DNA of 64,000 bases, taken from an uncultured Gammaproteobacteria bacterium. Its GTDB lineage: Bacteria > Patescibacteriota > Microgenomatia > JALYQM01. A program made the translations under genes and the position numbers. The notes under the pieces were generated by a model that was given only the letters and a program-made list of their open reading frames with translations, ran no database searches and was not told the DNA's origin. This document shows positions 7,855-44,564 of the stretch, in pieces (position 1 is the first letter of the stretch; the number at the start of each line of letters is the position of its first letter). The stretch is from NCBI GenBank assembly GCA_964403585.1, contig CAYOFQ010000001.1, forward strand, positions 960,826 to 1,024,825, given 5' to 3'.

Positions 7855-7866
7855 TATAGGAGGTTT

Positions 7867-10142: not shown

Positions 10143-10247
10143 GAAAATAGCATATTGCATTTGGAGGTCGAAACTATCTATCATTTTATATAGAGTATAA
10201 GTTTGAAAAGATATACATCTTCTTGAAGGGGGGTGAAACTAAACATT

Positions 10248-10853: not shown

Positions 10854-10875
10854 AAAACACGTCAATACACACAAG

Positions 10876-10906
10876 AAGACGTCCCTTCACCGGGACGTTT
10901 TTTTGT
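10876..10906 (+). terminator. Rho-independent terminator downstream of the major pilin gene
   Basis: The sequence gacgtccc ttcacc gggacgtc forms an 8 bp GC-rich stem and is followed by TTTTTTT. Confidence 0.8.
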
Positions 10907-10923
10907 GCTACCATTCCTCGTAT

Positions 10924-11847
10924 ATGCAATTTTTCTACTACATTGTTACTTTTATTCTCGGTGCGTGTGTCGGAAGTTTTATAAACAACACCGCGGAACG
11001 CTTAGCCCGCGGCGAAAGTATCAACGGCAGATCGCATTGCGAATTCTGTGACAAGACATTAACCGCCAAAGACCTCGTTCCGCTCTGGAGCTACCTTTCC
11101 TTAAAAGGTAAATGCCGTTATTGCAGTAAACCGCTCCCAAAACAATACATTATTGTAGAACTGGCAACAGCAATAATTTTTACTCTCATCTACCACTTAG
11201 TATCCAATAATGCCTACGTTGTCCAGGATTATTTAAATAACTCCATCCACTTTGTCGACTTCGGCATTATTGTTCCACTGATCTTCTTTTATATTGTAAC
11301 GACATCGCTGCTGATTCTATTTATCACCGATCTTAAATATGGCATGCTTTACGACAAAGTGGTTATTCCAACCATTCTCTTTGTCCTGGCCTATCGCATT
11401 TTCGTTATTGCTTACAATTACTTTCGACTCGCCAATTATCTCAACCAGACAAAAATTGGCCAGTATTTTCTCAAAGCCGGCTTCGCTCTGAATCACGCAC
11501 AATTTTCCTCGAACGTCTTTATCTATACACTACTGGGAAGTCTCGCCATCGCCTTCTTCTTTCTGGTTTTAATTATAGTTACCCGTGGACGCGGTATGGG
11601 CGGCGGTGATCTCAAACTGGGTTTCCTGATCGGCTTATTATCCGGCTGGCCAAACATGCTGATGTCTATTTTTCTCGGCTTCTTGACAGGCGCAATAGTG
11701 AGCTGCATACTTTTAATAGTACGAAGGAGAAAAATCGGACAAACCATCCCCTTCGGCCCCTTCCTGATACTTGGCTGTTTTGTAGTCATGTTTTACGGAA
11801 ATCAGTTATTCGGATGGTATTTAAATGACATTTTAGGACTGCGATAA
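10924..11847 (+). CDS. pilD: Prepilin peptidase PilD (A24 family)
   Basis: It has N-terminal CxxC...CxxC zinc-binding motifs (CEFCDK, CRYCSK), a polytopic membrane body and a C-terminal GGGDLKLGFLIGLL motif. The ATG at 10924 is preferred over the TTG at 10903, which lies in the terminator T-run. Confidence 0.85.
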   Translation: MQFFYYIVTFILGACVGSFINNTAERLARGESINGRSHCEFCDKTLTAKDLVPLWSYLSLKGKCRYCSKPLPKQYIIVELATAIIFTLIYHLVSNNAYVVQDYLNNSIHFVDFGIIVPLIFFYIVTTSLLILFITDLKYGMLYDKVVIPTILFVLAYRIFVIAYNYFRLANYLNQTKIGQYFLKAGFALNHAQFSSNVFIYTLLGSLAIAFFFLVLIIVTRGRGMGGGDLKLGFLIGLLSGWPNMLMSIFLGFLTGAIVSCILLIVRRRKIGQTIPFGPFLILGCFVVMFYGNQLFGWYLNDILGLR

Positions 11848-11850
11848 CGT

Positions 11851-12351
11851 ATGCAAAAAGGTTTTACTCTGATCGAACTTTTAATTGTCGTCACCGTTTT
11901 GGGAATACTTACGACTATGGCCATGGCAAATTTTGCCGGTGGCACTTCCAAAGCCCGCGATGCACAACGTAAGTCAGACCTGCGTGCCGTACGTGAAGCA
12001 CTCGAAATGTACAAACAGGACAAAGGATCGTACTACGTTCCAAGTACTACCTACCGCTCCGGAGCAACTGCCTTTCCTGCAGATGGTGCAGGAGCCACTA
12101 CCGGCAATACTCAGTTCACCAGCCTCTTGAGTAACGGCACCTATGGCTTAGTCACATTAGGATATATGCAAAAAACGCTGCAGGATCCGAAAGCTGCTAC
12201 TCCCTATCTCTATCGCTACGCGACCGGCGATGCTTCCGGCAGCGATTTTGTACTGGAGGCCTGTCTCGAAAACTCCAGTGATCCACAAAAATATCAGGCC
12301 ACGGCTATATCACCTTGCACCACAGCTAATTATCGGGTATTTAATCCATAA
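11851..12351 (+). CDS. Prepilin-type protein (pilin or pseudopilin, GspG-like N-terminus)
   Basis: The N-terminus reads MQKGFTLIELLIVVTVLGILTTMA...KARDAQRKSDLRAV. That is a class III signal followed by a GspG/PulG-like motif. Confidence 0.8.
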   Translation: MQKGFTLIELLIVVTVLGILTTMAMANFAGGTSKARDAQRKSDLRAVREALEMYKQDKGSYYVPSTTYRSGATAFPADGAGATTGNTQFTSLLSNGTYGLVTLGYMQKTLQDPKAATPYLYRYATGDASGSDFVLEACLENSSDPQKYQATAISPCTTANYRVFNP

Positions 12352-12368
12352 AAAGGGGTAGTATTTAT

Positions 12369-12929
12369 ATGAACATAACGAAAGATTTATCAAAACAAAG
12401 AGGATTTACGTTAATCGAACTCCTCGTCGTTATTTCAATTATCGGAATACTATCTGCACTGCTCTTACCCAATTTAACCAGCGCCCAGGCACGTGCCCGT
12501 GACGGCCGACGCAAGTCCGATCTGAAAGCCATCGCCACCGGACTGGAACTTTTTTATAACGATAATAATTACTACCCTGCCCGCTGGGTATCCGGAGCAA
12601 CCGCCGCCAAATTTGATTTCGCTAATGCGTTGACCGATGCAGCCGGAACCACAACCTATATCAAATCCCCGGTACCAAAGGACCCGAAAAACACAGCTAC
12701 CGGAAACTACGAATACTATTACTGCACCCAATCCGATACCGCAACCAACAACAAGAAATTTAACCTGTTTGCTAAGCTGGAGAATACCAACGATCCGGAT
12801 AAGTGTACCGCATCACCTTGCGCCAATAGCATCAATACTTCCAATGGTGTTTGTGGACGCGGTAGTGCCACCACAGCGGCTTCATCAGCAATTATCAATG
12901 CGATGACCTACACCGTTTCCGAACCGTAA
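12369..12929 (+). CDS. Prepilin-type protein (pilin, GspG-like)
   Basis: The N-terminus reads QRGFTLIELLVVISIIGILSALLLPNL...ARARDGRRKSDLKAI. Confidence 0.8.
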   Translation: MNITKDLSKQRGFTLIELLVVISIIGILSALLLPNLTSAQARARDGRRKSDLKAIATGLELFYNDNNYYPARWVSGATAAKFDFANALTDAAGTTTYIKSPVPKDPKNTATGNYEYYYCTQSDTATNNKKFNLFAKLENTNDPDKCTASPCANSINTSNGVCGRGSATTAASSAIINAMTYTVSEP

Positions 12930-12987
12930 AGGTACTTAGAAAAAAGCTTGACGCTGCTATCACAACTCCCCTACACTGTAGTAAGCG

Positions 12988-13680
12988 ATGAAAAATCAAA
13001 ACGGTTTCACTCTCATAGAACTTCTGGTCGTAGTTACCATCATGGGCATTCTTTTAACATTGGCTATTCCCGCCTATCGGAATTTTAATGAAGAACAATC
13101 GGTCAGTTTAGCGGCCAACATGGTTAAAGACGACATTCAGTTCGGAATTAACAAATCGACTTCGGGATTCAATGCCCACTGGTTTGGAGTAACTCTGAAC
13201 GCCGATACCGCAGCAGTTCCCGGTCCGTATACCGAATATAAAAACTTTGAAATTACGCCGAATAACTCATCAGGGATTGTTGTCTGTCCGCCAATTGTCA
13301 TAAGCCTTTCTACGGCCCCTTGTTCATCATCAGTACATAAGAAGGAAACGGTCAAAAAATATCCAACCGGTGTAAAACTCGACAAGATTATTTTGTATGA
13401 TATGGAAGCTAATGCTATTGACTACCCCAGTTTTATCGATGTACGATTTAATCAATCACCACAGAGCGGACAAATTATTATCAGCTCCGAAGGAACGGCA
13501 CCGGCATTACGGGCCAAGATAGCTCGAGCCGAACTTCAGTATAAAAACGGAACGTTTCAGCGAAGTCTGGTTGTTGATGGAGGAAATGTCTGTGATGATA
13601 TGCAACCGAATAAAACTGCCTGCAATAACGATTTAACCGGAGGGCCAAAACCAAGCAGAGTATTTGTAGTGGAGAAATAG
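12988..13680 (+). CDS. Prepilin-type minor pilin
   Basis: The N-terminus reads MKNQNGFTLIELLVVVTIMGILLTLAIPAY. The gene sits in the pilin array. Confidence 0.75.
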   Translation: MKNQNGFTLIELLVVVTIMGILLTLAIPAYRNFNEEQSVSLAANMVKDDIQFGINKSTSGFNAHWFGVTLNADTAAVPGPYTEYKNFEITPNNSSGIVVCPPIVISLSTAPCSSSVHKKETVKKYPTGVKLDKIILYDMEANAIDYPSFIDVRFNQSPQSGQIIISSEGTAPALRAKIARAELQYKNGTFQRSLVVDGGNVCDDMQPNKTACNNDLTGGPKPSRVFVVEK

Positions 13681-13681
13681 A

Positions 13682-14239
13682 ATGAATCAAAAATTTAGTA
13701 ATCAAACAGGTCAGTCACTAGTCGAAGTAGTTATCGCGCTGGGTATAGCGGTTATCATTGTGATCGCCTTTACCAATGCCACCATTGCTTCAGTACGCAA
13801 TTCACAATTTTCCAAAAACCAGAATCTGGCCACCAAATATGCACAGGAGACTCTGGAACTGGTCCGCGCAATTCGGGACCAGAATACGGTCGGAAGCGTC
13901 ACCGATGGAACAGCCGGTCTGAACTCCTGGGGAGACCTCTGGGGTATTAATCTAAAGAACGCCGCCTCCCCCGGTGGCGGGTATACCGGGTACTGTTTTA
14001 CACTGAATAAAACGACTCTGGTACTAACGAAGCGAACATCCTGTGCGGATACCAATGGTGCCGGGGTTAGAATTGATGAAAACCTCGATACAACAACCAA
14101 TCTTTTCTATCGAAAAATTAATATCACCGACGATGGCACCACACTTACCAAAAAACAAGTGAGTGTTAGAGTTTACTGGAGCGACAACCGTGGACAACAC
14201 AACACCGATGTAACAACCTTTCTTACGAATTGGCAATAA
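13682..14239 (+). CDS. Prepilin-type minor pilin (atypical G|QSLVE cleavage site)
   Basis: The N-terminus reads QTGQSLVEVVIALGIAVIIVIAF. It has Glu at +5 and a hydrophobic helix. The gene sits in the pilin array. Confidence 0.65.
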   Translation: MNQKFSNQTGQSLVEVVIALGIAVIIVIAFTNATIASVRNSQFSKNQNLATKYAQETLELVRAIRDQNTVGSVTDGTAGLNSWGDLWGINLKNAASPGGGYTGYCFTLNKTTLVLTKRTSCADTNGAGVRIDENLDTTTNLFYRKINITDDGTTLTKKQVSVRVYWSDNRGQHNTDVTTFLTNWQ

Positions 14240-14243
14240 ATAA

Positions 14244-15026
14244 ATGATAAAAAATAATCAGCAGGGCTTCACATTAATTGAAATACTCGTCGTCATTACC
14301 ATTATTGGCGTGCTTACGGGTATCACTGCGGATATTTTTATCCAAATCGTACGCGGTTCAAATAAGGCCAATGTCGTCACCGAAATAAAACAGAATGGTG
14401 ATAATATCCTCAACCAGCTTGAACGCACTATCCGTAATGCCGAAGAAATTACCGCTATGGGTGGTACCAATACGTTTGACTGGGCTCCATCCTCAGCGTG
14501 GACCGATGTCTCAACTATTGTTGCGCCCGATACTTGGAGCTGTTCCTTTAAGTACTGCGCAATCATCGTTAAGAACCAAGGCGCTACCGGAGGGTATACC
14601 AAAATTGAAATTCACGCCCAAACCGGCACTTCGCCGATTGTCGGAGACCAACGCTGCAGCAGTTCGCCATTTACCACCAACGACCAGGATCAAACAAAGT
14701 CACCGTACGAATGTAATGGCAATATTCGCCTCGTTACCGATACATCTACTTCTGCAGTGGATAATTTAAAAAATACAACTAATGCTGTTACAGCCACGAC
14801 TATTGGGCAGGTAATATCCAACACCGAACGCCGCAGCGGGGTCAGTGTTCGCGCCACCACCGCCGGTGATCCCTTCTTCAACATCCGATTCAATTCTTCA
14901 AGTCCACCGTTAGTTACCACGCAATTTGCATTAACACAGGGCATTAATGCATCCAGTCGTGTTGATGCCACCGCCATCGTTCCATTCACACAAACAATAT
15001 CACTACGGGTATATAACAGTGACTAA
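14244..15026 (+). CDS. Prepilin-type minor pilin
   Basis: The N-terminus reads MIKNNQQGFTLIEILVVITIIGVLTG. Confidence 0.75.
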   Translation: MIKNNQQGFTLIEILVVITIIGVLTGITADIFIQIVRGSNKANVVTEIKQNGDNILNQLERTIRNAEEITAMGGTNTFDWAPSSAWTDVSTIVAPDTWSCSFKYCAIIVKNQGATGGYTKIEIHAQTGTSPIVGDQRCSSSPFTTNDQDQTKSPYECNGNIRLVTDTSTSAVDNLKNTTNAVTATTIGQVISNTERRSGVSVRATTAGDPFFNIRFNSSSPPLVTTQFALTQGINASSRVDATAIVPFTQTISLRVYNSD

Positions 15027-15086
15027 ATATCCTCTTGATTAATTAGTGAGTGGTAATACACAATAGAAAAAGCTAGGAGAGATGAT

Positions 15087-16028
15087 ATGAAACAAATCAA
15101 AAATACTTTACAGGACCAGTCAGGCCAAATGGCTATTCTTGTTATGTTGGTGCTGGTTGTAGCACTCACTATCGGGCTGGCTATTATTGCCAGAACCACT
15201 ACCGATGTTCGTCTTTCCACTAATACCAATCAGTCTAACCAGGCCTATGCTGCAGCCGAAGCAGGTATTGAAGCCGCCCTTGGCAACAACATCACTTCGT
15301 ACGGAACTGATGTCACCATTGGAAATGCCACATTCAATGTTTCAACACCTACCCAACAGGGTGGCAGCACTACGCCGTTCGCTTTTCCCAACGACTTAAA
15401 AAAGGATGAGTCTGCTCAAGTCTGGTTGTTTGATTACAATAATTTCAAAACCAATGCCGCCAGTCCGTATTCAGGATTCTACAATAGCTGCAGCACCCCG
15501 GCCAACTGTAACCAAATAACCATCCATTGGGGTACCAATGCTGCAACCAGCGGTAAAGAGCCGGCTCTCGAAGCATCACTTATTTATAAAGAAAATAACG
15601 CCTTTGGTGTTGAGAAATATGCCTTTGACAGCCAGTATAGCGTCCGTGGTAACGGATTTGATCCGGTAACCTACGTCTCCAATCCAACAGCTATTACCAC
15701 CAACCAGGGCAGTAAAAAGTATAACTATAGCCGGACAATAACTCTTTCTAACGGTGAAACCGGTTCCGGATCATGCACCACTGCCGGACCACGTTGCTAT
15801 CTCTTACTCCGCATTAAACTGCTCTATAACGACGGACAGGATCAGGGCGTCGCTGTAGCTCCACAGTCAGGTCGCTCACTTCCGGCACAGGGTACTCAAA
15901 TCGATTCTCAGGGAAAATCCGGGGATACCGTACGTAAAGTACGCGTCTATCAATCGTACCCCACCTTACCGGGAATCTTTGACTTCGTTGTCTTCAACGG
16001 TAGTACCAACCCTTTGCAAAAAAACTAG
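15087..16028 (+). CDS. PilX-like minor pilin / pilus assembly protein
   Basis: It has an N-terminal hydrophobic helix (GQMAILVMLVLVVALTIGLAIIA). The motif QAYAAAEAGIEAAL resembles the PilX N-terminal domain signature. Confidence 0.6.
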   Translation: MKQIKNTLQDQSGQMAILVMLVLVVALTIGLAIIARTTTDVRLSTNTNQSNQAYAAAEAGIEAALGNNITSYGTDVTIGNATFNVSTPTQQGGSTTPFAFPNDLKKDESAQVWLFDYNNFKTNAASPYSGFYNSCSTPANCNQITIHWGTNAATSGKEPALEASLIYKENNAFGVEKYAFDSQYSVRGNGFDPVTYVSNPTAITTNQGSKKYNYSRTITLSNGETGSGSCTTAGPRCYLLLRIKLLYNDGQDQGVAVAPQSGRSLPAQGTQIDSQGKSGDTVRKVRVYQSYPTLPGIFDFVVFNGSTNPLQKN

Positions 16029-16037
16029 AGCAACCAC

Positions 16038-17477
16038 ATGAAGCAAAAAACAAAAACGTATCGGAGAGCAGGATTTATAATCCTCTCTCTGATAGTCGCA
16101 TCATTCTGGATTCCTAAGGCACAGGCAGATACCTTACCTAATACCACATACTCCATCGACGCCTCGGCAGAGACCGGAAATAACGGCTGGTATATTAGCG
16201 CGGTTCCCATTACGTTACAAACTACTGCCGGAACAAATCCCGTTCAGTCAATTACCTATTGGATCGACTCAGGTACCCCAACCACAGTTAATGCTTCTTC
16301 CACAACTAGTATCCTGATCGCCCAGGGAATCCATACGCTGTACTTTTACGCCAAAGATACCCTGGATAATCAGGAGGCTACCAAGTCATTTGCCTATAAG
16401 ATCGACCTAGTGGCACCGGGAAACTGGAACACGTTTAATGTTGTTAATTCGGGTAACTCTCATACGTTTACCATTACAGACAAAGTAACCGATAAAACGT
16501 CCGGGATAGACAACCTTACCGCCGAATTCCAATACAGTGTCGATGATGGTAATACTTGGGGGTACTATTCTACCTTAACGAACTGTAGTTCCACCTGGAA
16601 TAACAATGCCTGGCGAAGTGCCACGGTTTCACCAAATACGCCCGGATCCTTAAGTGTTACAGTAAACATTCCCACTACTGACTATTGCAATTCCAACTGG
16701 GCGAACACCAAATATATCCGGATTCGTATTAAAGATATGGCCGGAATCCAATCCACTAAACAATATGCACTGATGGCGCCATGGATGAAAACCAGCGGAG
16801 GTAATGTACATTCTGAGGGAATAATTGACATGACGACTGAAAACAGCACCAGCGCAACGGGAATCGTATCTACCGGAGGGAATACTGTTAATAACATGAC
16901 CTCTGCACAAGGTTGGCAAATGAGAAATTATTCTATTCCAATCATAACCTCCTCCGTGTACATGGATTATTACAATAAACTAAATTCGTCCGCTCAGAAT
17001 TTGCCTTCAACGCTACCAACCACATCAGGAGTATATAAAACTACTGATTTCGTCTTAACTGGAACAAAAATCCCGGCAGCCTTAACTACTGCGCAAAATG
17101 TTGCCCTAGTAATATTAGTTTTCGGCGATCTCTATATAGACACCAATATTTCACTCCATCCAACCAGTTCAATTATCTGGGTAGTAACCGGAGATACCGG
17201 CATTCGAAATAGCGTTACATCGGTTGATAGCAACTTCTTTACCGGAGGTGAATTTAACTCATCATACAACGGAGGATCTAACAACCAGTTAACCATAGAA
17301 GGCTCTGTAGCGGCCTTTGGCGCTATGATTTTCGATCGATCTCTTAGTGGGACCAATAACTTAAATTCCCCTGCCGAAATCATCAATTATAATCCAATTA
17401 TTTTTGCTAATCCGTTCCTGTTAAATGCCCTTAATCTCGACTCAACGGTCACCTGGAGAGAGATCATCGACTACTAG
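16038..17477 (+). CDS. Large secreted protein with N-terminal Ig-like repeats. Candidate pilus-associated adhesin.
   Basis: It has a Sec signal peptide (IILSLIVASFWIPKAQA|DT). Two repeats of an NGWY...Y.D.G.W..Y Ig-like motif (chitobiase-C-like) are followed by a beta-rich Asn/Ser/Thr-rich region. Its position between the minor pilins and pilM suggests a tip or adhesin role (inference). Confidence 0.45.
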   Translation: MKQKTKTYRRAGFIILSLIVASFWIPKAQADTLPNTTYSIDASAETGNNGWYISAVPITLQTTAGTNPVQSITYWIDSGTPTTVNASSTTSILIAQGIHTLYFYAKDTLDNQEATKSFAYKIDLVAPGNWNTFNVVNSGNSHTFTITDKVTDKTSGIDNLTAEFQYSVDDGNTWGYYSTLTNCSSTWNNNAWRSATVSPNTPGSLSVTVNIPTTDYCNSNWANTKYIRIRIKDMAGIQSTKQYALMAPWMKTSGGNVHSEGIIDMTTENSTSATGIVSTGGNTVNNMTSAQGWQMRNYSIPIITSSVYMDYYNKLNSSAQNLPSTLPTTSGVYKTTDFVLTGTKIPAALTTAQNVALVILVFGDLYIDTNISLHPTSSIIWVVTGDTGIRNSVTSVDSNFFTGGEFNSSYNGGSNNQLTIEGSVAAFGAMIFDRSLSGTNNLNSPAEIINYNPIIFANPFLLNALNLDSTVTWREIIDY

Positions 17478-17480
17478 ATC

Positions 17481-17510
17481 TTGACATGCCTTTCCACTGT
17501 CCTACATACT
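17481..17510 (+). promoter_or_regulatory. Candidate sigma70-like promoter for pilMNO
   Basis: There is a TTGACA at 17481-17486 and a CATACT at 17505-17510 with an 18 nt spacer. The pilM ATG at 17521 has no obvious SD, so the transcript could be nearly leaderless. Confidence 0.35.
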
Positions 17511-17520
17511 ATATAAAGTT

Positions 17521-18555
17521 ATGGCAAATAAAAACTTTTTCGGGCTGGATATCGGAGATTCCAGCATAAAATTAGTCTATCTTCAAAAAGATAATCAGGG
17601 CAGTAAATTGCTTGCATACGGTTTGGCACCCACTCCGGGGAACGGCATGACCTCTGAAGCAGACTTCGACAAAGAAGCTATTGTCGAAATCATCAAAAGA
17701 TTAACAAAAGAAACCAAGGTAAACACTAATCAGGTTGTTACCTCACTGCCGGAATCACAGATTTTCACCCGTATTATCGAGATGCCGCCAATGTCGGAAA
17801 AGGAACTCTCATCTGCCATCAAATTTGAATCCGAGCAGTACATTCCCCGACCACTCAATGAAGTATCTCTCCGTTGGCAGATCTTAACCAAAGGTGATAA
17901 AGAAAAAGGTCAAAAAATGGAAGTACTCATTGTCGCGGCTCCGTTGACCCTAATCGAAAAATACACTGAAATACTTGCCAAAGCGGATTTAAAACCAATC
18001 GCCATGGAAACAGATTTATTGGCACAGGCTCGATCATTGGTAGGTAATAACCCCTACTCTCCAACAACCATGGTTATTTCCATCGGTTCAACCAACACTG
18101 ACTTAAGTATTATCCGCGGCGGTATGGTAAGCTTCACGCGTTCCATTGCCTCCGGTGGTGCTACCTTAAGCCGCGCTATTGCTTCTGATCTGTCTTTGGA
18201 ATTCGAGCAGGCTGAACAATACAAAAAAACCTATGGTCTCTTGGATGATCAGCTTGAAGGCAAAGTAATGAGCGCCATCAAACCTACGTTTGAATTAATT
18301 ATCAACGAAATAAAAAAAGCGATTACCTTATATCAAACTAAAAACCCGAACGATCAGGTGAAACGGCTAGTATTGGCCGGTGGTACTGCAAAACTTCCCG
18401 GCTTGCTAATTTTCCTGGCCAACGCACTCGGAATTGAAGCACAGGTTGGAGATCCGTGGTTTAATATTAAAAAAGATCCGAATATTGAGGGTCAGTTAAC
18501 CGAAGATGCACCAATTTATTCAGTGGCAGTAGGACTTGCTCTAAAGGAGATCTAA
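17521..18555 (+). CDS. pilM: Type IV pilus assembly protein PilM (actin-like ATPase fold)
   Basis: The start reads FFGLDIGDSSIKLV. The protein is 344 aa and is followed by pilN and pilO. Confidence 0.85.
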   Translation: MANKNFFGLDIGDSSIKLVYLQKDNQGSKLLAYGLAPTPGNGMTSEADFDKEAIVEIIKRLTKETKVNTNQVVTSLPESQIFTRIIEMPPMSEKELSSAIKFESEQYIPRPLNEVSLRWQILTKGDKEKGQKMEVLIVAAPLTLIEKYTEILAKADLKPIAMETDLLAQARSLVGNNPYSPTTMVISIGSTNTDLSIIRGGMVSFTRSIASGGATLSRAIASDLSLEFEQAEQYKKTYGLLDDQLEGKVMSAIKPTFELIINEIKKAITLYQTKNPNDQVKRLVLAGGTAKLPGLLIFLANALGIEAQVGDPWFNIKKDPNIEGQLTEDAPIYSVAVGLALKEI

Positions 18556-18561
18556 ATTAGT

Positions 18562-19122
18562 ATGGCAAAAGATATTAACCTATTACCCGACGTAACGCTT
18601 ACAGAAGAACGCGAAAGTAAGTTACAAAAATTGCTTACCATTGTCAGCATGGCTATTCTGGTAGTAGGAGTAATTGCGTTAATCGCGGTTATAACCATCG
18701 ATCTTACACTTAATGACGGATATAAAAAGTTAGTCGACGAAAACGATGGTAAAAAGGCCCAGGTGCTGGGATATGCCGAAACCGAATTGTCACAACGCGC
18801 TATCAAATCAAAATTAGTCACTTCTTCAAATGTTATTAAGGCAGCCAAAGATTATAAAACTATTATTGAGAACATCCAAAGCATCGTACCGGATGGCATC
18901 ACTATTTCCGATGTGGCCATCGATAAAACAGATAAAATTGTATTAAATGGCAAAGCCAACAACTCGGAAAGCTTTTATAACTATATTAAGAACTTGCTCG
19001 ACACAGAAAAGGGCGCCAAATATTTCACCGACGTTGTATTAGGGAGCGTCAACACGACCAAGGACAGCGATCTCCAATTCAACATCACCATGACGTTAGT
19101 TAAAGCAGGGGGAAATCAATGA
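18562..19122 (+). CDS. pilN: Type IV pilus assembly protein PilN
   Basis: It has an N-terminal INLLP motif followed by a single TM helix. It follows pilM. Confidence 0.8.
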   Translation: MAKDINLLPDVTLTEERESKLQKLLTIVSMAILVVGVIALIAVITIDLTLNDGYKKLVDENDGKKAQVLGYAETELSQRAIKSKLVTSSNVIKAAKDYKTIIENIQSIVPDGITISDVAIDKTDKIVLNGKANNSESFYNYIKNLLDTEKGAKYFTDVVLGSVNTTKDSDLQFNITMTLVKAGGNQ

Positions 19123-19907
19123 AAAACGCAAATAGCAAAATGAAGATGAGCGTATACTACGTCTTGCCGGTCATCGCAATCCTAGTAGTCATCGGGATCG
19201 GATTATTATTCATTCAACCAAAGATCACCGAGATTCAGGATCTGCAGCAAAAGAAAGCCGCTGAGGAAGAGCGCAAAATCAAACTCGAAAAGAAATTGAC
19301 TGATCTTGCCCAGTTGGAAAACAACAAGACTGATTTGATTGCTCAGTTAACCGCGCTGACTATTGCCCTACCCAACCAGAAAGAAGTTCCGGCACTCATT
19401 ATCCAATTACAAAAAATCGCCCAGGAAAGTGATGTCCAGATTCAGGGTATTCAGTTAACTCCTGGAAAACTACTTAATGACACATCAATACAAGCTGCAG
19501 CCAAGACCGGACCATCCGTAAGCTTTACACTGACCTTCCGCGGCAATTACGAGGCAATTAAGACCTTCATGGGTAAAGTATACAAAGCCAAACGTCTGGT
19601 AAACATGGAATCAATCAATTTGAACACCGGTGGTGCACAATCTGAAGACGGCGGAGTGTCAGTCAGTTCAAGCATGCTGGCCTTCTACCAGCCATTCCCG
19701 GCAACACCAAAAGATGAAACTGAAGAAATTCCTGCGCTAACAGCCGAAGACAAAGAAACCTATGACGCGCTGCAAACATATAACTCATACCAGATCGATG
19801 GGACAGCCCCTGAAGCGCCTGCGGCTACAGCTACTCCGGCTCCAAGTGCCAGCGTACAGCCAACAGCATCAGTAAGCGCAACACCACGCAGTACCGGAAC
19901 TCGCTAA
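19119..19907 (+). CDS. pilO: Type IV pilus assembly protein PilO with a Pro/Ala/Thr-rich C-terminal tail
   Basis: It has a single N-terminal TM and coiled-coil, then a PilO-like domain. The start overlaps pilN. The C-terminus is APEAPAATATPAPSASVQPTASVSATP. Confidence 0.7.
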   Translation: MKNANSKMKMSVYYVLPVIAILVVIGIGLLFIQPKITEIQDLQQKKAAEEERKIKLEKKLTDLAQLENNKTDLIAQLTALTIALPNQKEVPALIIQLQKIAQESDVQIQGIQLTPGKLLNDTSIQAAAKTGPSVSFTLTFRGNYEAIKTFMGKVYKAKRLVNMESINLNTGGAQSEDGGVSVSSSMLAFYQPFPATPKDETEEIPALTAEDKETYDALQTYNSYQIDGTAPEAPAATATPAPSASVQPTASVSATPRSTGTR

Positions 19908-21183: not shown

Positions 21184-21879
21184 TCATGACTGAGGCCAAG
21201 CGTCAAGTGCTGCCTTGGCAGCCGCTTGTTCGGCCTCTTGCTTACTCCTCCCATGCCCTTTTCCATAAACCTGGGAGTCTACTTGTACTTGTACCTCAAA
21301 TTCTTTTGCATGATCCGGGCCTGAGGTGCTAACCACGGTATACTGCGGAGAAATACGGAACTTCTCCTGAACTTTTTCCTGAAACATACTCTTATAATCC
21401 CGGAAGGTTCCGCTGGCAATAATCTCCTGCAAGTGGATAAGCAACCGGTTGGTTACAAAAATACGGGCTTTCTCAAAACCGAAATTAAGATATATCACCC
21501 CAAGTAACGCCTCAAAAGTATCTGCCAATAACGAGGGGTTTTCCTTACCTCCCGATTCGGCTTCTCCCCGCGCCATATGTAAATATGTGCCTAATCCTAA
21601 CTCACGAGCCACTACCGCCAGGGAACCGGTTTTTACAATTGAAGACCGGTAGTTGGTCAACTGCCCTTCAGGTAAAGTGGGAAACGTCTGGTACAAATAG
21701 TGGGAAACGATCAAGGAAAGCACACTATCCCCTAAAAACTCCAGTCGCTCGTTACTTTCCAGCGATTTATCTTTACTCTCATTGAGAAACGAACGGTGTA
21801 TAAACGCCTTTTTTACGAGCTGCTCGTCGGGAAATTCGATTGAATCCTCTCGTAATAAAGCAATCAGCGGTTCAAACAT
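21184..21879 (-). CDS. rnc: Ribonuclease III
   Basis: It has the RNase III signature ERLEFLGDSVL and a C-terminal dsRBD. Confidence 0.9.
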   Translation of the reverse strand: MFEPLIALLREDSIEFPDEQLVKKAFIHRSFLNESKDKSLESNERLEFLGDSVLSLIVSHYLYQTFPTLPEGQLTNYRSSIVKTGSLAVVARELGLGTYLHMARGEAESGGKENPSLLADTFEALLGVIYLNFGFEKARIFVTNRLLIHLQEIIASGTFRDYKSMFQEKVQEKFRISPQYTVVSTSGPDHAKEFEVQVQVDSQVYGKGHGRSKQEAEQAAAKAALDAWPQS

Positions 21880-25892: not shown

Positions 25893-25999
25893 GGCAAAAA
25901 TTATACTAGATTCTAATATCTGCGAACAAGCGGCATTTGCCCAGTAACATATAGCGTACCTTTTGACTTTTATTGCACTCTCTCTGTTATAATAAAGCA

Positions 26000-28552
26000 A
26001 TGCAAGATTTAAAAAATGCGTTTTCGTCGCGTCGTGCCAAACTCGATAAGAAAGGCAATAAAGAGAAAGTCGAGCTCACAACTAAGCAAAAAATCCTCAC
26101 TATAACTGCCGTACTTCTCAGTGTATTTTTCGGTCTCTTTCTGATCGGCATTGTCGTGGTAATTATTGTCTTTGCCTGGTTCGCCAGAGACTTACCGAGC
26201 CCGACCACACTGAAAGACCGTACTGTTGAACAGGCAACTAAGATCATGGACCGCACCGGCAAAACCCTCTATAACGTCTATGACGCCGAAAACCGTGAAC
26301 TTGTTACCCTCGACAAAATTCCCAAGCACGTTATCAATGCCACCATTGATACTGAAGATAAGGATTTTTATAAACACCAGGGCTTCGCTGTCGAAGGCTA
26401 CTTCCGTATTTTATACGACTTGGTTCGCTATCGTAAACTTATCGGAGCCTCATCTATTACGCAACAGCTGGTAAAAAACACCCTTGTCGGTGGCGACCGT
26501 ACACCAACCCGCAAACTCCGTGAACTCATTTTAGCTATCCAGGTCGATAAACGATTCAGCAAAGATGAAGTACTGCAGATGTACCTGAATGAAATTCCCT
26601 ATGGCGGAACAACCTATGGTATCCAAACCGCGGCCCAAACTTATTTTGGAAAAAATGTCAGCGATCTCAGCCTTACCGAGGCAGCCATTCTGGCCGGGCT
26701 CCCCCAAAGTCCAACCTACTACTCCCCTTTCGGCGAATATCCGGATGCATTTAAAGACCGGACTAAATATGTCTTGCGACGTATGCGCGAAGAAGGACAT
26801 ATCACCAAAGATGAGGAACAGGCTTCGATTGCCGAACTCGATACTATTAAGTTCGCTGATCAGAAAATCGACATCAAAGCTCCTCATTTTACACTCTATG
26901 TTAAAGATCTTCTGGAAGAGAAATACGGGAAGGAATTAGTAGCCGAAGGCGGGTTGCGCGTTTACACATCATTGGATTTGGATTTGCAAAATAAAGTTCA
27001 GGATATTGTCAAAACCGAAGTTGATAAACTGGCGAAAGCGAAAGTCGGTAATGGCGCGGCAGTGGTACTGAATCCCAAAACCGGTGAAATCCTGGCCATG
27101 GTTGGATCCAAAGATTACTTTGCCAAAGACTACGACGGCCAGGTAAACGTAACTGTCCGCCCCAGACAGCCGGGATCCGCTACCAAGCCAATCACCTACG
27201 CAGTAGGCTTCACCAAAGGATACACACCGGCAACCATGTGGCTTGATGTCCAGACAGCCTTTGACGCAGGTCCAGGGCAAGAACCTTACAAACCAGTGAA
27301 CTATGACGGTAAATACCGCGGTCCGGTCCAAACCCGCACCGCGCTTGGCTCCTCGCTTAACATCACTGCGGTAAAAGCACTCGCTGTTAATGGCATTAAA
27401 GACACCATGAAAGTAGCCTACGATATGGGACTCACTAATTGGGAGCCGACGCCGCAGGCTATGCAAAATGTTGGACTGTCTTTAACATTAGGTGGTCGCG
27501 AAACCTCACTACTCGATCTGGCCTCAGCCTACGCGGTATTTGCCAATCAGGGCGTTAAACAGGATCTTGTCTCGGTAATAAAAGTCACCGATTCAAAAGG
27601 AAAAGTTATCGATGAGTTCAAACCGGCTACCGGAAAACGTATCTTAAAGCCCGAAATCACCTACCTTATTTCAGACATTCTTTCCGATGACAACGCCAGA
27701 ATTCCGGCCTTCGGACCACGCAGCTTACTGTATATTTCGGGCAAGCATGTGGCAGTCAAAACCGGTACCACCGACCAGAAACGAGACAACTGGGCATTTG
27801 GCTACACTCCTTCTTACGTTGTTGGTACCTGGGTCGGAAATAATAATAACACCGTCATGGACAATTCAATTGCCTCCGGTGTTACCGGTGCTACCCCAAT
27901 CTGGAATAAAATTATCCACACCTTAATCGACGGCAAGCCGGATGAGTGGTACACCAAACCGGACGAAGTAACCGCCCCGCTCGCAGTAGATTCCCGTACC
28001 GGTATGCGACCGGGTAACGGCACAACCGCTACCCGTCCTGAGATATTCATTAAAGGCACCGAACCACAACCAAACGATATAACCTACCAGAACGTTCGCG
28101 TTTGTAAGGGAACCAATGATGTTGAACACGACGGATGTGAAGCCGAAGATAAGCAGTTTGCTATTCTTACCGATCCATATCTGAAAATGTTCAACAAGCC
28201 GGGTGTCTGTCAGGGTGATTGTCCGAATGGCGGATCATTTGGAGGCTACTCCTCTATCGGGGGAAGTCCGAAAGATGCACCGGATATCAACATCAAAGAC
28301 ATACCGGATCAGGCCAACGTTCCTTTCACCTTCAATCTTTCAGCAGAGGCCAATCCGAAAGGTGATGCACAAATTGCCAACATGAAGATTTATATTGATG
28401 ATTATAACTTGGTCCGTACGACAAGCTCATCACCAATCAGTGCCCAGATTAACTTCCAGCAGTCACAAGCCGGGACACATAAAATTCGCGTCGAAGCAAC
28501 TGACAATAAAAATGTGACTTCAACAAAAGAGATTACGGTGAATGTGAGATAA
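26000..28552 (+). CDS. Class A penicillin-binding protein (glycosyltransferase + transpeptidase) with a C-terminal extension
   Basis: It has an N-terminal TM helix, GT51 motifs (EDKDFYKHQG, ITQQLVKN) and transpeptidase SxxK/SxN/KTG motifs (SATKP, KTGTT). The preferred start is MQDLKNAF at 26000. Confidence 0.85.
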   Translation: MQDLKNAFSSRRAKLDKKGNKEKVELTTKQKILTITAVLLSVFFGLFLIGIVVVIIVFAWFARDLPSPTTLKDRTVEQATKIMDRTGKTLYNVYDAENRELVTLDKIPKHVINATIDTEDKDFYKHQGFAVEGYFRILYDLVRYRKLIGASSITQQLVKNTLVGGDRTPTRKLRELILAIQVDKRFSKDEVLQMYLNEIPYGGTTYGIQTAAQTYFGKNVSDLSLTEAAILAGLPQSPTYYSPFGEYPDAFKDRTKYVLRRMREEGHITKDEEQASIAELDTIKFADQKIDIKAPHFTLYVKDLLEEKYGKELVAEGGLRVYTSLDLDLQNKVQDIVKTEVDKLAKAKVGNGAAVVLNPKTGEILAMVGSKDYFAKDYDGQVNVTVRPRQPGSATKPITYAVGFTKGYTPATMWLDVQTAFDAGPGQEPYKPVNYDGKYRGPVQTRTALGSSLNITAVKALAVNGIKDTMKVAYDMGLTNWEPTPQAMQNVGLSLTLGGRETSLLDLASAYAVFANQGVKQDLVSVIKVTDSKGKVIDEFKPATGKRILKPEITYLISDILSDDNARIPAFGPRSLLYISGKHVAVKTGTTDQKRDNWAFGYTPSYVVGTWVGNNNNTVMDNSIASGVTGATPIWNKIIHTLIDGKPDEWYTKPDEVTAPLAVDSRTGMRPGNGTTATRPEIFIKGTEPQPNDITYQNVRVCKGTNDVEHDGCEAEDKQFAILTDPYLKMFNKPGVCQGDCPNGGSFGGYSSIGGSPKDAPDINIKDIPDQANVPFTFNLSAEANPKGDAQIANMKIYIDDYNLVRTTSSSPISAQINFQQSQAGTHKIRVEATDNKNVTSTKEITVNVR

Positions 28553-28691
28553 AAAAGAGATCTCCCGGCTACCGTATATGCATAAATGTATCATGAAAAA
28601 ACGCATAAAGCGTTAATCATAACTCAGTTATGAGCATACGGTAGACGAGAGACCTCAAGAAAATTGCTAAGACAATGCAAATAAGGGTAGG

Positions 28692-29141
28692 CTAGTTGTT
28701 GCAGAACCGCAACCGTTGAATCTCTACCACGGAGCCAGGCGCAGCGGTCACCGCAACGGTAACTGGAACCCTGGCGTGGGCGATGACAATGTTATTAAAC
28801 TCTGACGCTGCCGGCCATGTACGGGTGTATCTTGACTCATATACCTCAGCAGCTCCATCGACCCAAAAGCCAACAGCATCCGACCAGTGAACCGAAAAGT
28901 CCACCGTTGCCATGCTACTTGGCTTAGCGGAAAAACCTTCCCCGTCGTTGAGCTCCATATAGGCCTCAACATAGTCCCCCAACTCCTGATCCTGCGGCAC
29001 GTCGACCGTCTCAGTCTGCGTGTAGCAAACCCAGGTCTCAGAGGATGGAGCACGCACCACGGCAGCATCTGCCGATGGAATTTTAAGTCCCAGCAAAGCG
29101 ACACCCAGCGCGAATAGAGCCGAAAAAATGCTGTTCCTCAT
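28692..29141 (-). CDS. Small secreted protein encoded in a GC-rich (about 57%) island. Function unknown.
   Basis: It has a Sec signal peptide (FSALFALGVALLGLKIPSADA|AV). Local GC and GC3 are far above the window background. The gene is preceded by AAGGAGG. Confidence 0.6.
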   Translation of the reverse strand: MRNSIFSALFALGVALLGLKIPSADAAVVRAPSSETWVCYTQTETVDVPQDQELGDYVEAYMELNDGEGFSAKPSSMATVDFSVHWSDAVGFWVDGAAEVYESRYTRTWPAASEFNNIVIAHARVPVTVAVTAAPGSVVEIQRLRFCNN

Positions 29142-29197
29142 AGCTCATGCCCTCCTTACGGCAACCCACGGTCCTTATTTTCCGCGGTATCAAATTG

Positions 29198-29250
29198 CCT
29201 TTGGCACAAGCGACGCCCGATTTATAATCCGGTGCCATTTGTGCCAAAGG
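29198..29250 (-). promoter_or_regulatory. 12 bp perfect inverted repeat (cctttggcacaa ... ttgtgccaaagg) in the long 5' leader of the GC-rich gene
   Basis: The repeat was read directly. The loop holds a second ggtgcc that could pair with the same 5' arm, giving an alternative structure. Confidence 0.4.
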
Positions 29251-29401
29251 AAGGCTATCTACTGTATGCTAACGGTAGCAGGGAGTGGTTGGAAGTCTTA
29301 TTTATACCCGATCTCCTTGAGCTCAGATGAACTCAAATTAACGAGGTAATACGGCTTCCAATACTCCCAACTACGTTTATTTTTTAAGGTACACGTTGCT
29401 A

Positions 29402-29430
29402 ATTATAGCATAATTTAAGCATAAATTCAA
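29402..29430 (-). promoter_or_regulatory. Near-consensus sigma70 promoter (TTGAAT-17-TATAAT) driving the GC-rich gene through a leader of about 250 nt
   Basis: The minus strand reads TTGAATttatgcttaaattatgcTATAAT. It lies about 20 nt downstream of the stop of the upstream gene. Confidence 0.5.
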
Positions 29431-29450
29431 GTACTATAGGATATTTTCAA

Positions 29451-30191
29451 TTAATAGTCTATCCACTTAATAGGAACGCGCCCGCTGTCAAACTCATCAA
29501 CAATCTGCTGAAGCTTCTGCTCATGACGAGTTTTCGCGACCTTTATATACATTTCCCGTAGCTGAGGATAATACGTATCCTTAAAATGCTTTCGTGCTAT
29601 GGTAAGCCTCCACAACAAGGCACGATATTCGGCAGGAGTAGCTAACTTCACCTCCATCGGAGCCAGCGGATCAACATCCGGTTCTCCTTCAATACCTTTT
29701 CGGGACAGATACGCTTGATGCGCAGCTTCTTCTACTCCGGCGAAAAGCATGGCATCCTCTGCATTATCATAAACCGCGCCCCCATGAATAGAAACAACCC
29801 GACGGGTAAGAAAGGAAGGTCTATTTTTCTTCTTTATTTCGTGAACAAACGAGGATCTATTTAAGTGAATTGATGAATCACCTTCTTGAACCCAGATCGA
29901 GGGACTCGGATAATATTCGGTCTCTCCTACTTTTTGGATAGATGGTTTAGTATCGTCCCAAGCTATATCTAAAAATCTTCTGTTGGCTGATAATCGGGCA
30001 TCTACTAAAGACACCCCAAACGCCAGATTGCCTAAAAGACGCGAACCATAGGCAATATCTTCCTGACTTAGAGAGTAGTCCTTCAGCTGTTCAGCAACCC
30101 ATGAAGCAGAATCACCGGCAACACTCGCGACAAATGCCTCCCGACGATCATGAAAATTTTCAACTACCGGTGGTGTACGTTCTTCTTCCAT
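29451..30191 (-). CDS. Hypothetical protein (246 aa)
   Basis: It is a long ORF with native codon usage. No family was recognized. Confidence 0.5.
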   Translation of the reverse strand: MEEERTPPVVENFHDRREAFVASVAGDSASWVAEQLKDYSLSQEDIAYGSRLLGNLAFGVSLVDARLSANRRFLDIAWDDTKPSIQKVGETEYYPSPSIWVQEGDSSIHLNRSSFVHEIKKKNRPSFLTRRVVSIHGGAVYDNAEDAMLFAGVEEAAHQAYLSRKGIEGEPDVDPLAPMEVKLATPAEYRALLWRLTIARKHFKDTYYPQLREMYIKVAKTRHEQKLQQIVDEFDSGRVPIKWIDY

Positions 30192-30194
30192 ATA

Positions 30195-41387: not shown

Positions 41388-41519
41388 ATGAGAAACAAAA
41401 AATTACTTACCTGTATAATTCTCGCCGGAGTAGTAATCTGTGGGTGCTACCTATACGTTAGAATGTCATATCCATCATCTGGATGTATAGATTATGGACA
41501 TGTTACATACTGTGAATGA
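41388..41519 (+). CDS. Possible 43 aa cysteine-rich small membrane/secreted peptide (MRNKKLLTCIILAGVVICGCYLYVRMSYPSSGCIDYGHVTYCE)
   Basis: This is an untracked small ORF directly after the Clp-like stop. It has 6 Cys and a hydrophobic N-terminus. No clear SD is present. Confidence 0.25.
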   Translation: MRNKKLLTCIILAGVVICGCYLYVRMSYPSSGCIDYGHVTYCE

Positions 41520-41688
41520 GCGATGCCATCAGCCGGTTCACCCACATAAGAAATTTGTTCAAATTTGACTATTTATATACTATAATCTTGAGCATCTCCT
41601 CGAGGTAGTTTTGGAGTCGTTCCGAAATACTACGTACAGGAGTTGTTCTTTAACACACCGTATAATTATCTATCTCCCCTCTATAGAG

Positions 41689-41732
41689 CGGTGAAATGAG
41701 CTGATGAAATAGTCGGTTGATTTCACCGTTTT
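41689..41732 (+). terminator. Hairpin plus T4 in the 5' leader of the second GC-rich gene. Candidate attenuator or terminator.
   Basis: The sequence cggtgaaat...atttcaccg forms a 9 bp stem with a loop of about 22 nt, followed by TTTT. It lies about 100 nt upstream of the GTG start. Confidence 0.4.
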
Positions 41733-41826
41733 AGAAAGGGGGTGGTAGGATTCCGAACAACAAAACCAGGAATAATCCCTAAGATGACGTTGGACCAGTG
41801 TGGTTCAACTCAACAAGGAGAAATCT

Positions 41827-42309
41827 GTGTTAGGCTTACCACGGCGACTCATCGTAGTCGCACTCGCGATCGCGGCCATGCTCGTGGCCATTGCACCCGA
41901 TGGGGCGGCTCACGCCGCTCCCGCCAACCGGCAAACCACCATTGCTGCCTACATCGCTTCACCGGCCTCTCAAGCCACAACGGCCGACGAGAACGACGAC
42001 CACCCGCCGGAATGTAGCGCGATGATTGGCAGCAAGTATGGCTGGCGCTACACCTTCGGCGTGGGACAATGCATCAAGCTGACCGAGACCATCTGGATCA
42101 CCTTCCTGGGGGCTACCGTTACTGAAGCTGGTCATACTGTCGAGGTGCTCGTGTCGGTAGGTAGCGACCGGCGTGTCTACGAGGCGCTACTCGTAACACC
42201 CTACAACGCGAACTACAGCGAAGCCACCTTGTACGCCACGCACGTGTGCCAGAACATCCACCTCTGGTACTATGGAACGAGCATGCAGCTCGGGGCGAAA
42301 ATCGTGTAG
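41827..42309 (+). CDS. Small secreted protein with a twin-arginine-like signal peptide, encoded in a 60-70% GC island. Function unknown.
   Basis: A GTG start is preceded by AAGGAG plus 6 nt. The signal peptide is MLGLPRRLIVVALAIAAMLVAIAPDGAAHA|AP. The gene is strongly GC3-rich, unlike all of its neighbours. The mature protein has 3 Cys. Confidence 0.6.
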   Translation: MLGLPRRLIVVALAIAAMLVAIAPDGAAHAAPANRQTTIAAYIASPASQATTADENDDHPPECSAMIGSKYGWRYTFGVGQCIKLTETIWITFLGATVTEAGHTVEVLVSVGSDRRVYEALLVTPYNANYSEATLYATHVCQNIHLWYYGTSMQLGAKIV

Positions 42310-42343
42310 AACGCGGTAGATAACGCTCGTCGGAGTTCGTGAT

Positions 42344-42384
42344 TCACGCGCCGTGTGGCGAAACCCGTTTCATACGGCGCGTGA
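42344..42384. repeat. GC-rich perfect 11 bp inverted repeat (tcacgcgccgt ... acggcgcgtga) at the 3' boundary of the GC island
   Basis: The repeat was read directly. No T-run follows it. Confidence 0.5.
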
Positions 42385-42428
42385 GGTTGCGAAGGAAAAT
42401 AATTATACGGTGTGTATTAGTTGAGTTC

Positions 42429-44105: not shown

Positions 44106-44564
44106 TTATTCTCCAAGAGTGAATCGGGCAAATCGGCGAATTTGGATGTTTTCTCCAAGCTTTGCAATACCCGACTTAACTAAGTCTTTAATGGTCATTT
44201 TACTATCTCTAATATAAGCTTGTTTCTCAAGTTCCGCAACGTCCACCGGGTTCATCGCTGAAACTTGCATCGCAATTTCCTTGCCGAGTTTCTGGAAATC
44301 TTCAGTTCGCGCAACAAAATCGGTTTCGCAGAGCAATTCTACCATTGCAGCGATTCGCCCCTCACCGTGTGAATAGGTAAACACCGATCCACTACCGGTA
44401 ACACGATCAGATTTCTTATCGGCTTTTTCGATACCTTCTGCCTGCAATATTTCAGCAGCTTTCTTCAAATCACCTTCGGCTTTCTCTAAAGCACGTCGGC
44501 AATTCATAATTCCTGCCCCGGTCTTTTCGCGGAGCTCTTTAACCATTTCAGCGGTAATGTTCAT
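44106..44564 (-). CDS. tsf: Elongation factor Ts (short form, 152 aa)
   Basis: It has an N-terminal UBA-like ITAEMVKELREKTGAGIMNCRRAL. It is adjacent to rpsB. It is about half the E. coli length. Confidence 0.8.
   Translation of the reverse strand: MNITAEMVKELREKTGAGIMNCRRALEKAEGDLKKAAEILQAEGIEKADKKSDRVTGSGSVFTYSHGEGRIAAMVELLCETDFVARTEDFQKLGKEIAMQVSAMNPVDVAELEKQAYIRDSKMTIKDLVKSGIAKLGENIQIRRFARFTLGE

Follow-up and report, generated by a model that had tools for sequence, protein, structure and literature searches.

How did a short GC-rich gene for a putative secreted protein come to lie between a conserved leader and a conserved terminator? The question is raised by islet 1, a locus in a 64-kb stretch of contig CAYOFQ010000001.1; the whole stretch is referred to here as the window. 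An earlier note, made from the letters of the window, described at this locus a Sec-secreted protein of 149 residues, encoded on the minus strand behind a native-like promoter and a structured leader, and suggested that the gene was acquired from a high-GC donor and placed under host-genome regulation. The gene is real, it is an outlier in composition and it is absent from the corresponding site in relatives. The explanation we favour, with a probability of roughly 0.55, is a conserved expression platform with an exchangeable open reading frame (ORF), which is replaced by recombination and drawn from a lineage-restricted, GC-richer pool.

One leader followed by different open reading frames

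What is conserved at the locus, and what is exchanged? The elements first needed are as follows.

28551-29430, minus strand: functional unit, promoter to terminator, larger than the coordinates of the earlier note
29402-29430, minus strand: sigma-70-type promoter, TTGAAT-17-TATAAT with an extended -10 TG, 10/12 match
29142-29395, minus strand: 5′ leader of approximately 254 nt, recognized by strong folding and conservation
28692-29141, minus strand: gene for the 149-residue pre-protein, with a Shine-Dalgarno (SD) sequence, signal peptide and one true homologue
28657-29159, minus strand: variable (exchangeable) segment with the SD region, ORF and a short 3′ spacer, delimited by the breakpoints with contigs L083 and L082
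28551-28656, minus strand: intrinsic terminator, an imperfect hairpin of 100 nt (28557-28656, approximately 40 bp) followed by U6 (28551-28556)

The comparison involves the window sequence (W) and two Logan contigs. L083, of 1306 nt, represents a near-conspecific strain and was reached via a variant of the 246-residue protein encoded upstream of islet 1. It is approximately 95% identical to the window over the end of pheT and the 246-residue gene, with a divergence of 8.0% at 4-fold sites. The leader shows four differences in 230 positions (Fisher p = 0.005 against the 4-fold sites), and the promoter and intergenic positions 7/55. The -10 element and the TG are kept in L083, with five substitutions in the -35 element and spacer. 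The promoter and leader, which the earlier note had assigned to host-side control, are the conserved part. Similarity stops abruptly at 29159/29160, after approximately 95-100% identity upstream, and beyond 29159 L083 presents a different SD context and ORF start (TTTCATGGAGGGCGCA ATG TTT AAG CTG..., MFKLVRRLF...) that runs to the end of the contig. Because the drop is so abrupt, 29159 is best read as a recombination breakpoint and not as a divergence gradient.

L082, of 931 nt, carries the gene for the single true homologue of the islet 1 protein, P0004. Its leader matches that of the window over 146 nt at 81.5%, including fully identical blocks of 18-29 nt, and its terminator hairpin over 93 nt at 93.5%, while the ORF between them has no detectable DNA similarity to the ORF of the window. 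Similarity ends at 29147 and resumes at approximately 28655. The boundaries with both contigs lie outside the terminator hairpin. The L082 ORF has a GC content of 0.546 and a GC content at third codon positions (GC3) of 0.68, and the downstream flank is 38% GC. In the GC profile of the window the variable segment roughly matches the GC-rich plateau.

On these sequence comparisons the conclusion that three different ORFs follow one leader is robust, and replacement of the ORF at the same locus is probable. We caution that allelic replacement is unproven, since short de Bruijn contigs may switch between copies should the leader occur more than once in a genome or sample. When 28500-29460 was compared with the window by self-BLAST, the only match was the segment itself, and so no silent donor was revealed.

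We note that L082 begins inside the first hairpin of the leader, L083 ends 44 nt into its ORF, and L001, a contig that shares its sample with the window, stops within the terminator's apical loop (window 28605). These breaks, at or near the leader or terminator, could reflect branching of the assembly graph, by repeat or polymorphism, or low coverage. Searching the literature by the accessions of the samples gave no result.

Structure of the leader and terminator

The promoter and the structured leader of approximately 250 nt given in the earlier note are both present. Transcription would start near 29395, and the leader has a minimum free energy of -103 kcal/mol (z = -7.1). Its parts are listed below.

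29271-29377, minus strand: HP1, a long imperfect hairpin of approximately 39 bp in the 5′ half of the leader, from RNA folding
29149-29255, minus strand: three-way junction (P1, P2, P3) in the 3′ half of the leader, from RNAfold and comparison
29248-29255 with 29149-29156, minus strand: P1, anti-SD GCCUUCCU paired with SD AGGAGGGC, from RNAfold
29201-29247, minus strand: P2, a 19-bp hairpin with the 12-bp inverted repeat of the earlier note at its base, from RNAfold
29160-29199, minus strand: P3, conserved with one C-G to U-G change
28562-28575 (plus), 29272-29285 (minus) and 28638-28651 (minus, two mismatches): three copies of the motif CTCCCKGCTACCGT

RNAfold was run separately on the window, L083 and L082 and gave an identical three-way junction architecture. 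P1 comprises 7-8 bp in each and is preserved by the new junction sequence of L083. The distal part of P2 is identical at just 11/29 nt between the window and L082, and the helix is kept via four compensatory pairs changed on both sides. In the junction alignment 96% of cells form pairs, compared with 37-53% when partners are slid as a control, and four pairs covary, against 0-1; three unpaired P3 cells represent a one-column misalignment of L082. The P1 pairs themselves are invariant across the three sequences, so that P1 is supported by its conservation and by the covariation seen in P2. When a covariance model of the junction (R1) was applied to the window and 45 related loci, it matched only its own three training sequences.

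The inverted repeat at 29198-29250 has the perfect 12-bp outer part reported earlier (CCTTTGGCACAA/TTGTGCCAAAGG), within 25-nt arms at 80%. The element ggtgcc (GGCACC in the RNA), for which alternative pairing had been proposed, does occur distally in this hairpin. L082 lacks it, and the alternative pairing is therefore not conserved. The conserved feature of the leader is instead the predicted three-way junction, which would sequester the SD.

The folds depend on the strand. The junction has -52.0 kcal/mol in the sense and -41.2 kcal/mol in the antisense direction in the window, and -52.9 against -33.0 kcal/mol in L082. The corresponding terminator values are -50.9 against -36.8 kcal/mol and -52.4 against -29.0 kcal/mol. 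The sense RNA is far more stable because of G-U pairs, and this asymmetry argues for a function at the level of RNA rather than DNA.

The terminator hairpin (z = -10.4 in the window) has the same fold in L082. It lies directly against the stop codon of PBP1A, the convergent gene. The assignment as an intrinsic terminator follows from a stable hairpin directly followed by U6 on the sense strand. A simple terminator scanner, limited to loops of 3-8 nt and to a count of 20 pairs, gave the small apical hairpin only.

HP1 differs by one substitution between the window and L083. It is a candidate mRNA stabilizer or RNase III substrate, and an RNase III gene is present in the window at 21184-21879. 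Both exact copies of CTCCCKGCTACCGT in the window lie at this locus. The copies form the bases of HP1 and the terminator, giving 13/14 complementarity between the 5′ and 3′ untranslated regions (UTRs). The motif may serve in long-range pairing of the mRNA or in processing by RNase III, or it may be a site for a protein or a recombinase.

The leader is a candidate for a new cis-regulatory RNA motif with a clear prediction, occlusion of the SD. It resembles leaders that sequester the SD, such as ROSE and fourU thermometers and translational riboswitch platforms, in having an SD and upstream anti-SD helix in a multi-helix junction with compensatory changes. It differs in that it matches no Rfam family, the junction is much larger than those of known thermometers, and conserved loops of the kind that form a ligand pocket are not definable from two effective sequences.

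The gene and its product

Is the ORF a gene? The answer is yes. The SD, AAGGAGG, is positioned 8 nt 5′ of the ATG, and the N-terminus, which reads MRN, SIFSALFALGVALLGL, then KIPSADA↓A (the arrow marks the predicted cleavage site), has by eye the n-h-c layout of a signal peptide with an AXA motif. The h-region contributes 16 hydrophobic residues.

29064-29141, minus strand: signal peptide, residues 1-26, predicted cleavage at ADA↓A after Ala26

The Sec-secreted protein of 149 residues proposed in the earlier note is thus borne out by inspection: the product appears to carry a Sec-type signal peptide and would be exported. The mature protein of approximately 123 residues is predicted to be all-β, with two conserved cysteines, Cys39 and Cys147, that may form a disulfide. 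The structure model is that of a generic β-sandwich. Signal peptidase I (56073-56666) and Lgt are encoded within the window.

The gene comes close to being an ORFan. Among 5.8 billion clustered proteins, a word-indexed search matched the islet 1 protein to itself only. A full HMMER scan of 1.84 billion representative proteins gave four matches, including P0002 and P0003, which we rejected as homologues; they are proteins with perfect tandem repeats and the sum of weak matches inflates their scores. The single true homologue, P0004, has 151 residues, is 33% identical and keeps both cysteines and several motifs. Its signal-peptide layout is matching, with the cleavage motif ASA↓V (by eye). A profile search with the islet 1 protein and P0004 found no further homologue.

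No significant family was found in Pfam, NCBIfam, PHROGs, PADLOC or PDB sequences for the islet 1 protein, P0004, the protein of islet 2 (described below) or the upstream 246-residue ORF. The best family match was phrog_3329, a PHROG of unknown function, at an E-value of 0.0025 and below significance. Plasmid and phage collections held no match to islet 1 by DNA or tblastn. At the level of RNA there was no Rfam 15 match at gathering thresholds, including for the leader, the scan of which the earlier note had recommended, and no ARAGORN match; Rfam at E ≤ 10 gave only chance palindrome matches (mir-399 and a viral pseudoknot).

Composition of the gene

Is the composition unusual? The window has a GC content of 44.3%, and the background consisted of 914 in-frame windows of 150 codons drawn from 50 other genes. 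The islet 1 ORF has a GC content of 54.7%, against 45% in background windows of equal size, and a GC3 of 59.3% against 44%; values for the three codon positions are 0.58/0.47/0.59. The GC z-score is 3.4, with 0/914 background windows as high. That for GC3 is 2.8, a value reached by 1.4% of the background, and the synonymous-codon log-likelihood is in the lowest 0.4%. Among ORFs in the window this one ranks second in GC, behind that of islet 2 (41800-42309). The ORF is a genuine but moderate composition outlier. The GC-rich gene of the earlier note therefore stands on proper computation of GC, GC3 and codon likelihood alike, at 54.7% and not the approximately 57% given, and the description of its third positions as strongly GC-rich was an overstatement.

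The RNA of the ORF is no better folded than shuffles (z = -1.6 and -0.9), on account of which RNA structure was rejected as the cause of the GC-richness. The excess could derive from an unsampled, moderately GC-richer donor pool or from GC-biased gene conversion (gBGC) at a recombination hot spot, a hypothesis put forward in PMC4450053. A foreign pool and gBGC fit the data equally well and the data cannot separate them. The locus is a natural case for weighing foreign DNA against recombination-driven GC enrichment in GC-rich islets.

The locus in related genomes

Was the gene always at this site? Two further features are required.

28553-30194, between the pheT and PBP1A stop codons: lineage-specific block of 1.64 kb
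29451-30191, minus strand: 246-residue ORF of native composition, 3 nt after the pheT stop codon

The block contains the 246-residue ORF, promoter, leader, islet 1 ORF and terminator. On one side is the PBP1A gene (25973-28552, plus strand), convergent with islet 1. On the other, beyond the 246-residue ORF, are genes for PheT, PheS, L20, ThrRS, TyrRS, RecG, NusB and RNase III. In the closest genome of the GTDB-representative collection (L002, CAZHTP010000001.1), where PheT is 70% and PBP1A 87.8% identical to the window proteins, pheT and the PBP1A gene are convergent and 17 nt apart, and the block is absent. It is also absent from a JGI contig with a PBP1A at least 90% identical, in which the next convergent gene, presumably pheT, lies 3 nt after that for PBP1A. 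The block is lineage-specific because both lack it. The earlier note had asked whether relatives carry an ortholog of the same composition at the syntenic site; these two lack the gene there, which supports the view that it was not ancestral here.

The 246-residue ORF is present in the window and L083, and absent from L002 and the JGI contig. Between the two copies there are 11 differences at first and second codon positions and 14 at third positions, which suggests weak constraint. Its AlphaFold2 model, with a predicted local distance difference test score of 52, was unusable and for that reason was not taken into a structure search.

The next-best PheT matches after L002 are 30-35% identical and belong to unclassified, Acidobacteriota and Patescibacteria metagenome-assembled genomes. 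The lineage is poorly sampled and the label of L002, uncultured Gammaproteobacteria, is probably wrong.

A model for exchange of the open reading frame

In the mechanism we propose, the sigma-70 promoter would drive a 254-nt leader from approximately 29395. The 5′ hairpin HP1 probably stabilizes the mRNA or serves RNase III. P1 would occlude the SD, and because it pairs the anti-SD with the SD, translation is predicted to need the helix to be opened, whether by temperature, by a ligand or protein, or through co-transcriptional kinetics. The small all-β product would be exported by Sec and cleaved after Ala26, and the transcript would end at the 40-bp hairpin and U6. The ORF between 29159 and approximately 28657 would turn over by recombination, which either exploits the conserved flanks or is tolerated between them. 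Replacement by recombination is suggested because every known copy has an ORF of its own, in contrast to the conserved promoter, leader and terminator. Homologous recombination via the flanks appears the simplest mechanism, since the breakpoints fall in or at the edge of the conserved flanks and away from the CTCCCKGCTACCGT motifs.

If this pattern holds, the locus provides a compact, testable case of variation in a secreted protein under fixed regulation, in a bacterium of reduced genome that is probably associated with a host or surface. Conservation of the regulatory RNA would exceed that of synonymous sites, with wholesale replacement of the coding region. If it fails, islet 1 is no more than a strain-specific ORFan of the ordinary kind, whose 5′ UTR is long and structured.

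Several points weigh against such a platform. The evidence base is three sequences, two of them short Logan contigs, and the covariation rests on the same three, effectively two. The gene past the terminator in L082 differs from the PBP1A gene of the window, so that L082 represents a different context or a paralogous copy and maybe not an allele. There is no further copy of the leader or terminator in the window or in 45 related loci, and exact 20-23-mers from both gave zero matches in JGI metagenomes and IMG/VR. Control of translation by SD sequestration is a prediction, and the platform does not in itself account for the GC-richness.

The pattern has parallels among replacement-type flexible islands and hypervariable surface loci, such as Neisseria pilE and O-antigen clusters, which likewise have conserved flanks, a diverged interior, a secreted or surface product and turnover at strain level. 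Neisseria pilE has a conserved 3′ Sma/Cla repeat. At islet 1, by contrast, non-coding RNA elements form the flanks, one ORF of 450 nt makes up the unit and the window contains no silent donors. A diversity-generating retroelement is not supported: window self-BLAST gave no template repeat, and there is no reverse transcriptase among the scanned window ORFs.

A parallel with the hypervariable gene of Gracilibacteria was set aside, as that report describes variation in repeat number, a different phenomenon (PMC6851277).

Alternative explanations

A bolder extension of the platform would make the leader and terminator the handles of an undescribed cassette-exchange system, through which ORFs for small secreted proteins would pass between copies or strains by recombination, the junction a new SD-sequestering RNA motif, the GC excess a footprint of gBGC, and islet 2 a second module with other handles. 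Taken together these proposals are speculative and we think them doubtful. For gBGC there is a likeness, in that elevated GC3 is confined to the recombining segment in two independent copies, the window and L082, although this is a correlation and no more. That recombination hot spots gain GC through biased gene conversion is a hypothesis reportedly advanced for bacteria, and its genome-wide effects are said to be smaller than the shift seen here, of 15-25 GC3 points over 450 nt.

Could the gene instead have arrived recently by horizontal transfer from a high-GC donor, such as an actinobacterium hosting an epibiont, and landed behind a native promoter? We judge this unlikely. It would account for the outlying GC, GC3 and codon usage, for the absence of the gene at the syntenic site and its variability between strains, and for a second, GC-richer secreted ORFan, islet 2, after which comes a GC-rich hairpin lacking a U tract. 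Yet no homologue occurs in high-GC organisms among 1.8 billion representative and 5.8 billion clustered proteins, the protein of islet 2 is also an ORFan, and neither plasmids nor phages gave a match. The sole homologue, P0004, sits in the same AT-richer platform of leader and terminator. A GC3 of 0.59-0.68 is far below typical actinobacterial values, which exceed 0.8. To reach 0.59 from such a donor would require long amelioration, in conflict with recent turnover. A precise landing between an SD-sequestering leader and a terminator, three times over, is also implausible without a cassette mechanism. What remains of the earlier note's acquired gene under host regulation is a gene that is replaceable, absent in relatives and represented by another ORF in L083; the high-GC, actinobacterial donor is not upheld.

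A little less probable still is a native, vertically inherited gene, under very fast diversifying selection on a surface or secreted protein, with a constant regulatory RNA and no exchange. The ORFs of the window and L082 are indeed homologous, of about the same length and with the same cysteines, and the leader is clearly under purifying selection. However, the flanks of the window and L083 are only 5% diverged and similarity is nonetheless gone within a few bases at 29159, where the N-terminus encoded by L083 is unrelated to that of the window. Nor would the usual AT-biased mutation hold GC3 15-25 points above the genome.

We give equally little weight to a site-specific recombination cassette, be it integron-like, dif-module-like or invertible, with the CTCCCKGCTACCGT motifs or flanking inverted repeats as recombinase sites. 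The three copies of CTCCCKGCTACCGT alternate in orientation and bracket the ORF, the only two exact copies in the window being here, and a perfect 17-bp inverted repeat encloses islet 2. As with integron cassettes, the variable unit is approximately one ORF, the promoter lies outside it, a large imperfect hairpin reminiscent of attC directly follows the ORF, and different ORFs occupy one slot across related genomes. Against this, the breakpoints (29159 with L083; 29147 and approximately 28655 with L082) are off the motifs at 29272-29285 and 28562-28575 and resemble those of homologous, not site-specific, recombination. Pfam scans covered 46 window ORFs, among them every gene within approximately 10 kb to either side, and detected no domain of a recombinase, integrase, transposase or reverse transcriptase, and thus no IntI nearby. 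Inspection of 28557-28656 shows no RYYYAAC/GTTRRRY attC cores. No array is present, only one slot. With its U tract, the hairpin is an RNA terminator of the sense strand; it lies outside the variable segment, and its G-U strand asymmetry indicates an RNA function. With respect to inversion, inverted repeats are present at both islets, 13/14 at 28562-28575/29272-29285 and the perfect 17-mer around islet 2, and the available contigs L001 and L084 have the orientation of the window.

That the GC-rich stretch is a structured non-coding RNA or a spurious ORF can be dismissed: GC-rich islands in AT-richer genomes are often RNA genes and this ORF is almost without homologues, but it has a protein homologue without DNA similarity, conserved cysteines, a ribosome-binding site, a signal peptide and GC3 above GC2, and its RNA folds like shuffles and matches neither Rfam nor a tRNA.

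Islet 2 and neighbouring genes

Islet 2 occupies 41565-42415 and matches the architecture of islet 1; the proteins are unrelated and the leaders share no sequence. Its features are given below.

41565-41593, approximately: promoter, TTGACT...TATAAT-like (by eye)
41653-41669 and 42399-42415: perfect 17-bp inverted repeat ACACACCGTATAATTAT bracketing the ORF
41827-42309, plus strand: 160-residue ORFan with a signal-peptide-like N-terminus
42344-42384: GC-rich hairpin without a U tract

The ORF is the most GC-rich in the window (GC 0.60, GC3 0.73) and is preceded by a leader of approximately 240 nt (z = -8.3). For the inverted repeat 0.12 matches are expected by chance at up to three mismatches, and the complementarity of CTCCCKGCTACCGT between the 5′ and 3′ UTRs of islet 1 is analogous to it. 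Between a ClpB-like gene and the islet 2 promoter is an ORF of 43 codons (MRNKKLLTCIILAGVVICGCYLYVRMSYPSSGCIDYGHVTYCE, 41388-41519, plus strand), which by eye has a hydrophobic N-terminus and is rich in cysteine.

The 46 scanned ORFs are largely housekeeping genes together with a type IV pilus cluster and a few without a Pfam match. The cluster (6061-19907, plus strand) includes a prepilin peptidase (10903-11847), N-methyl pilin-like genes (12988-13680 and 14244-15026), PilM (17521-18555) and several ORFs without a Pfam match, among them 15087-16028 and 16038-17477. The EF-Ts gene at 44106-44564 is unusually short, encoding 152 residues.

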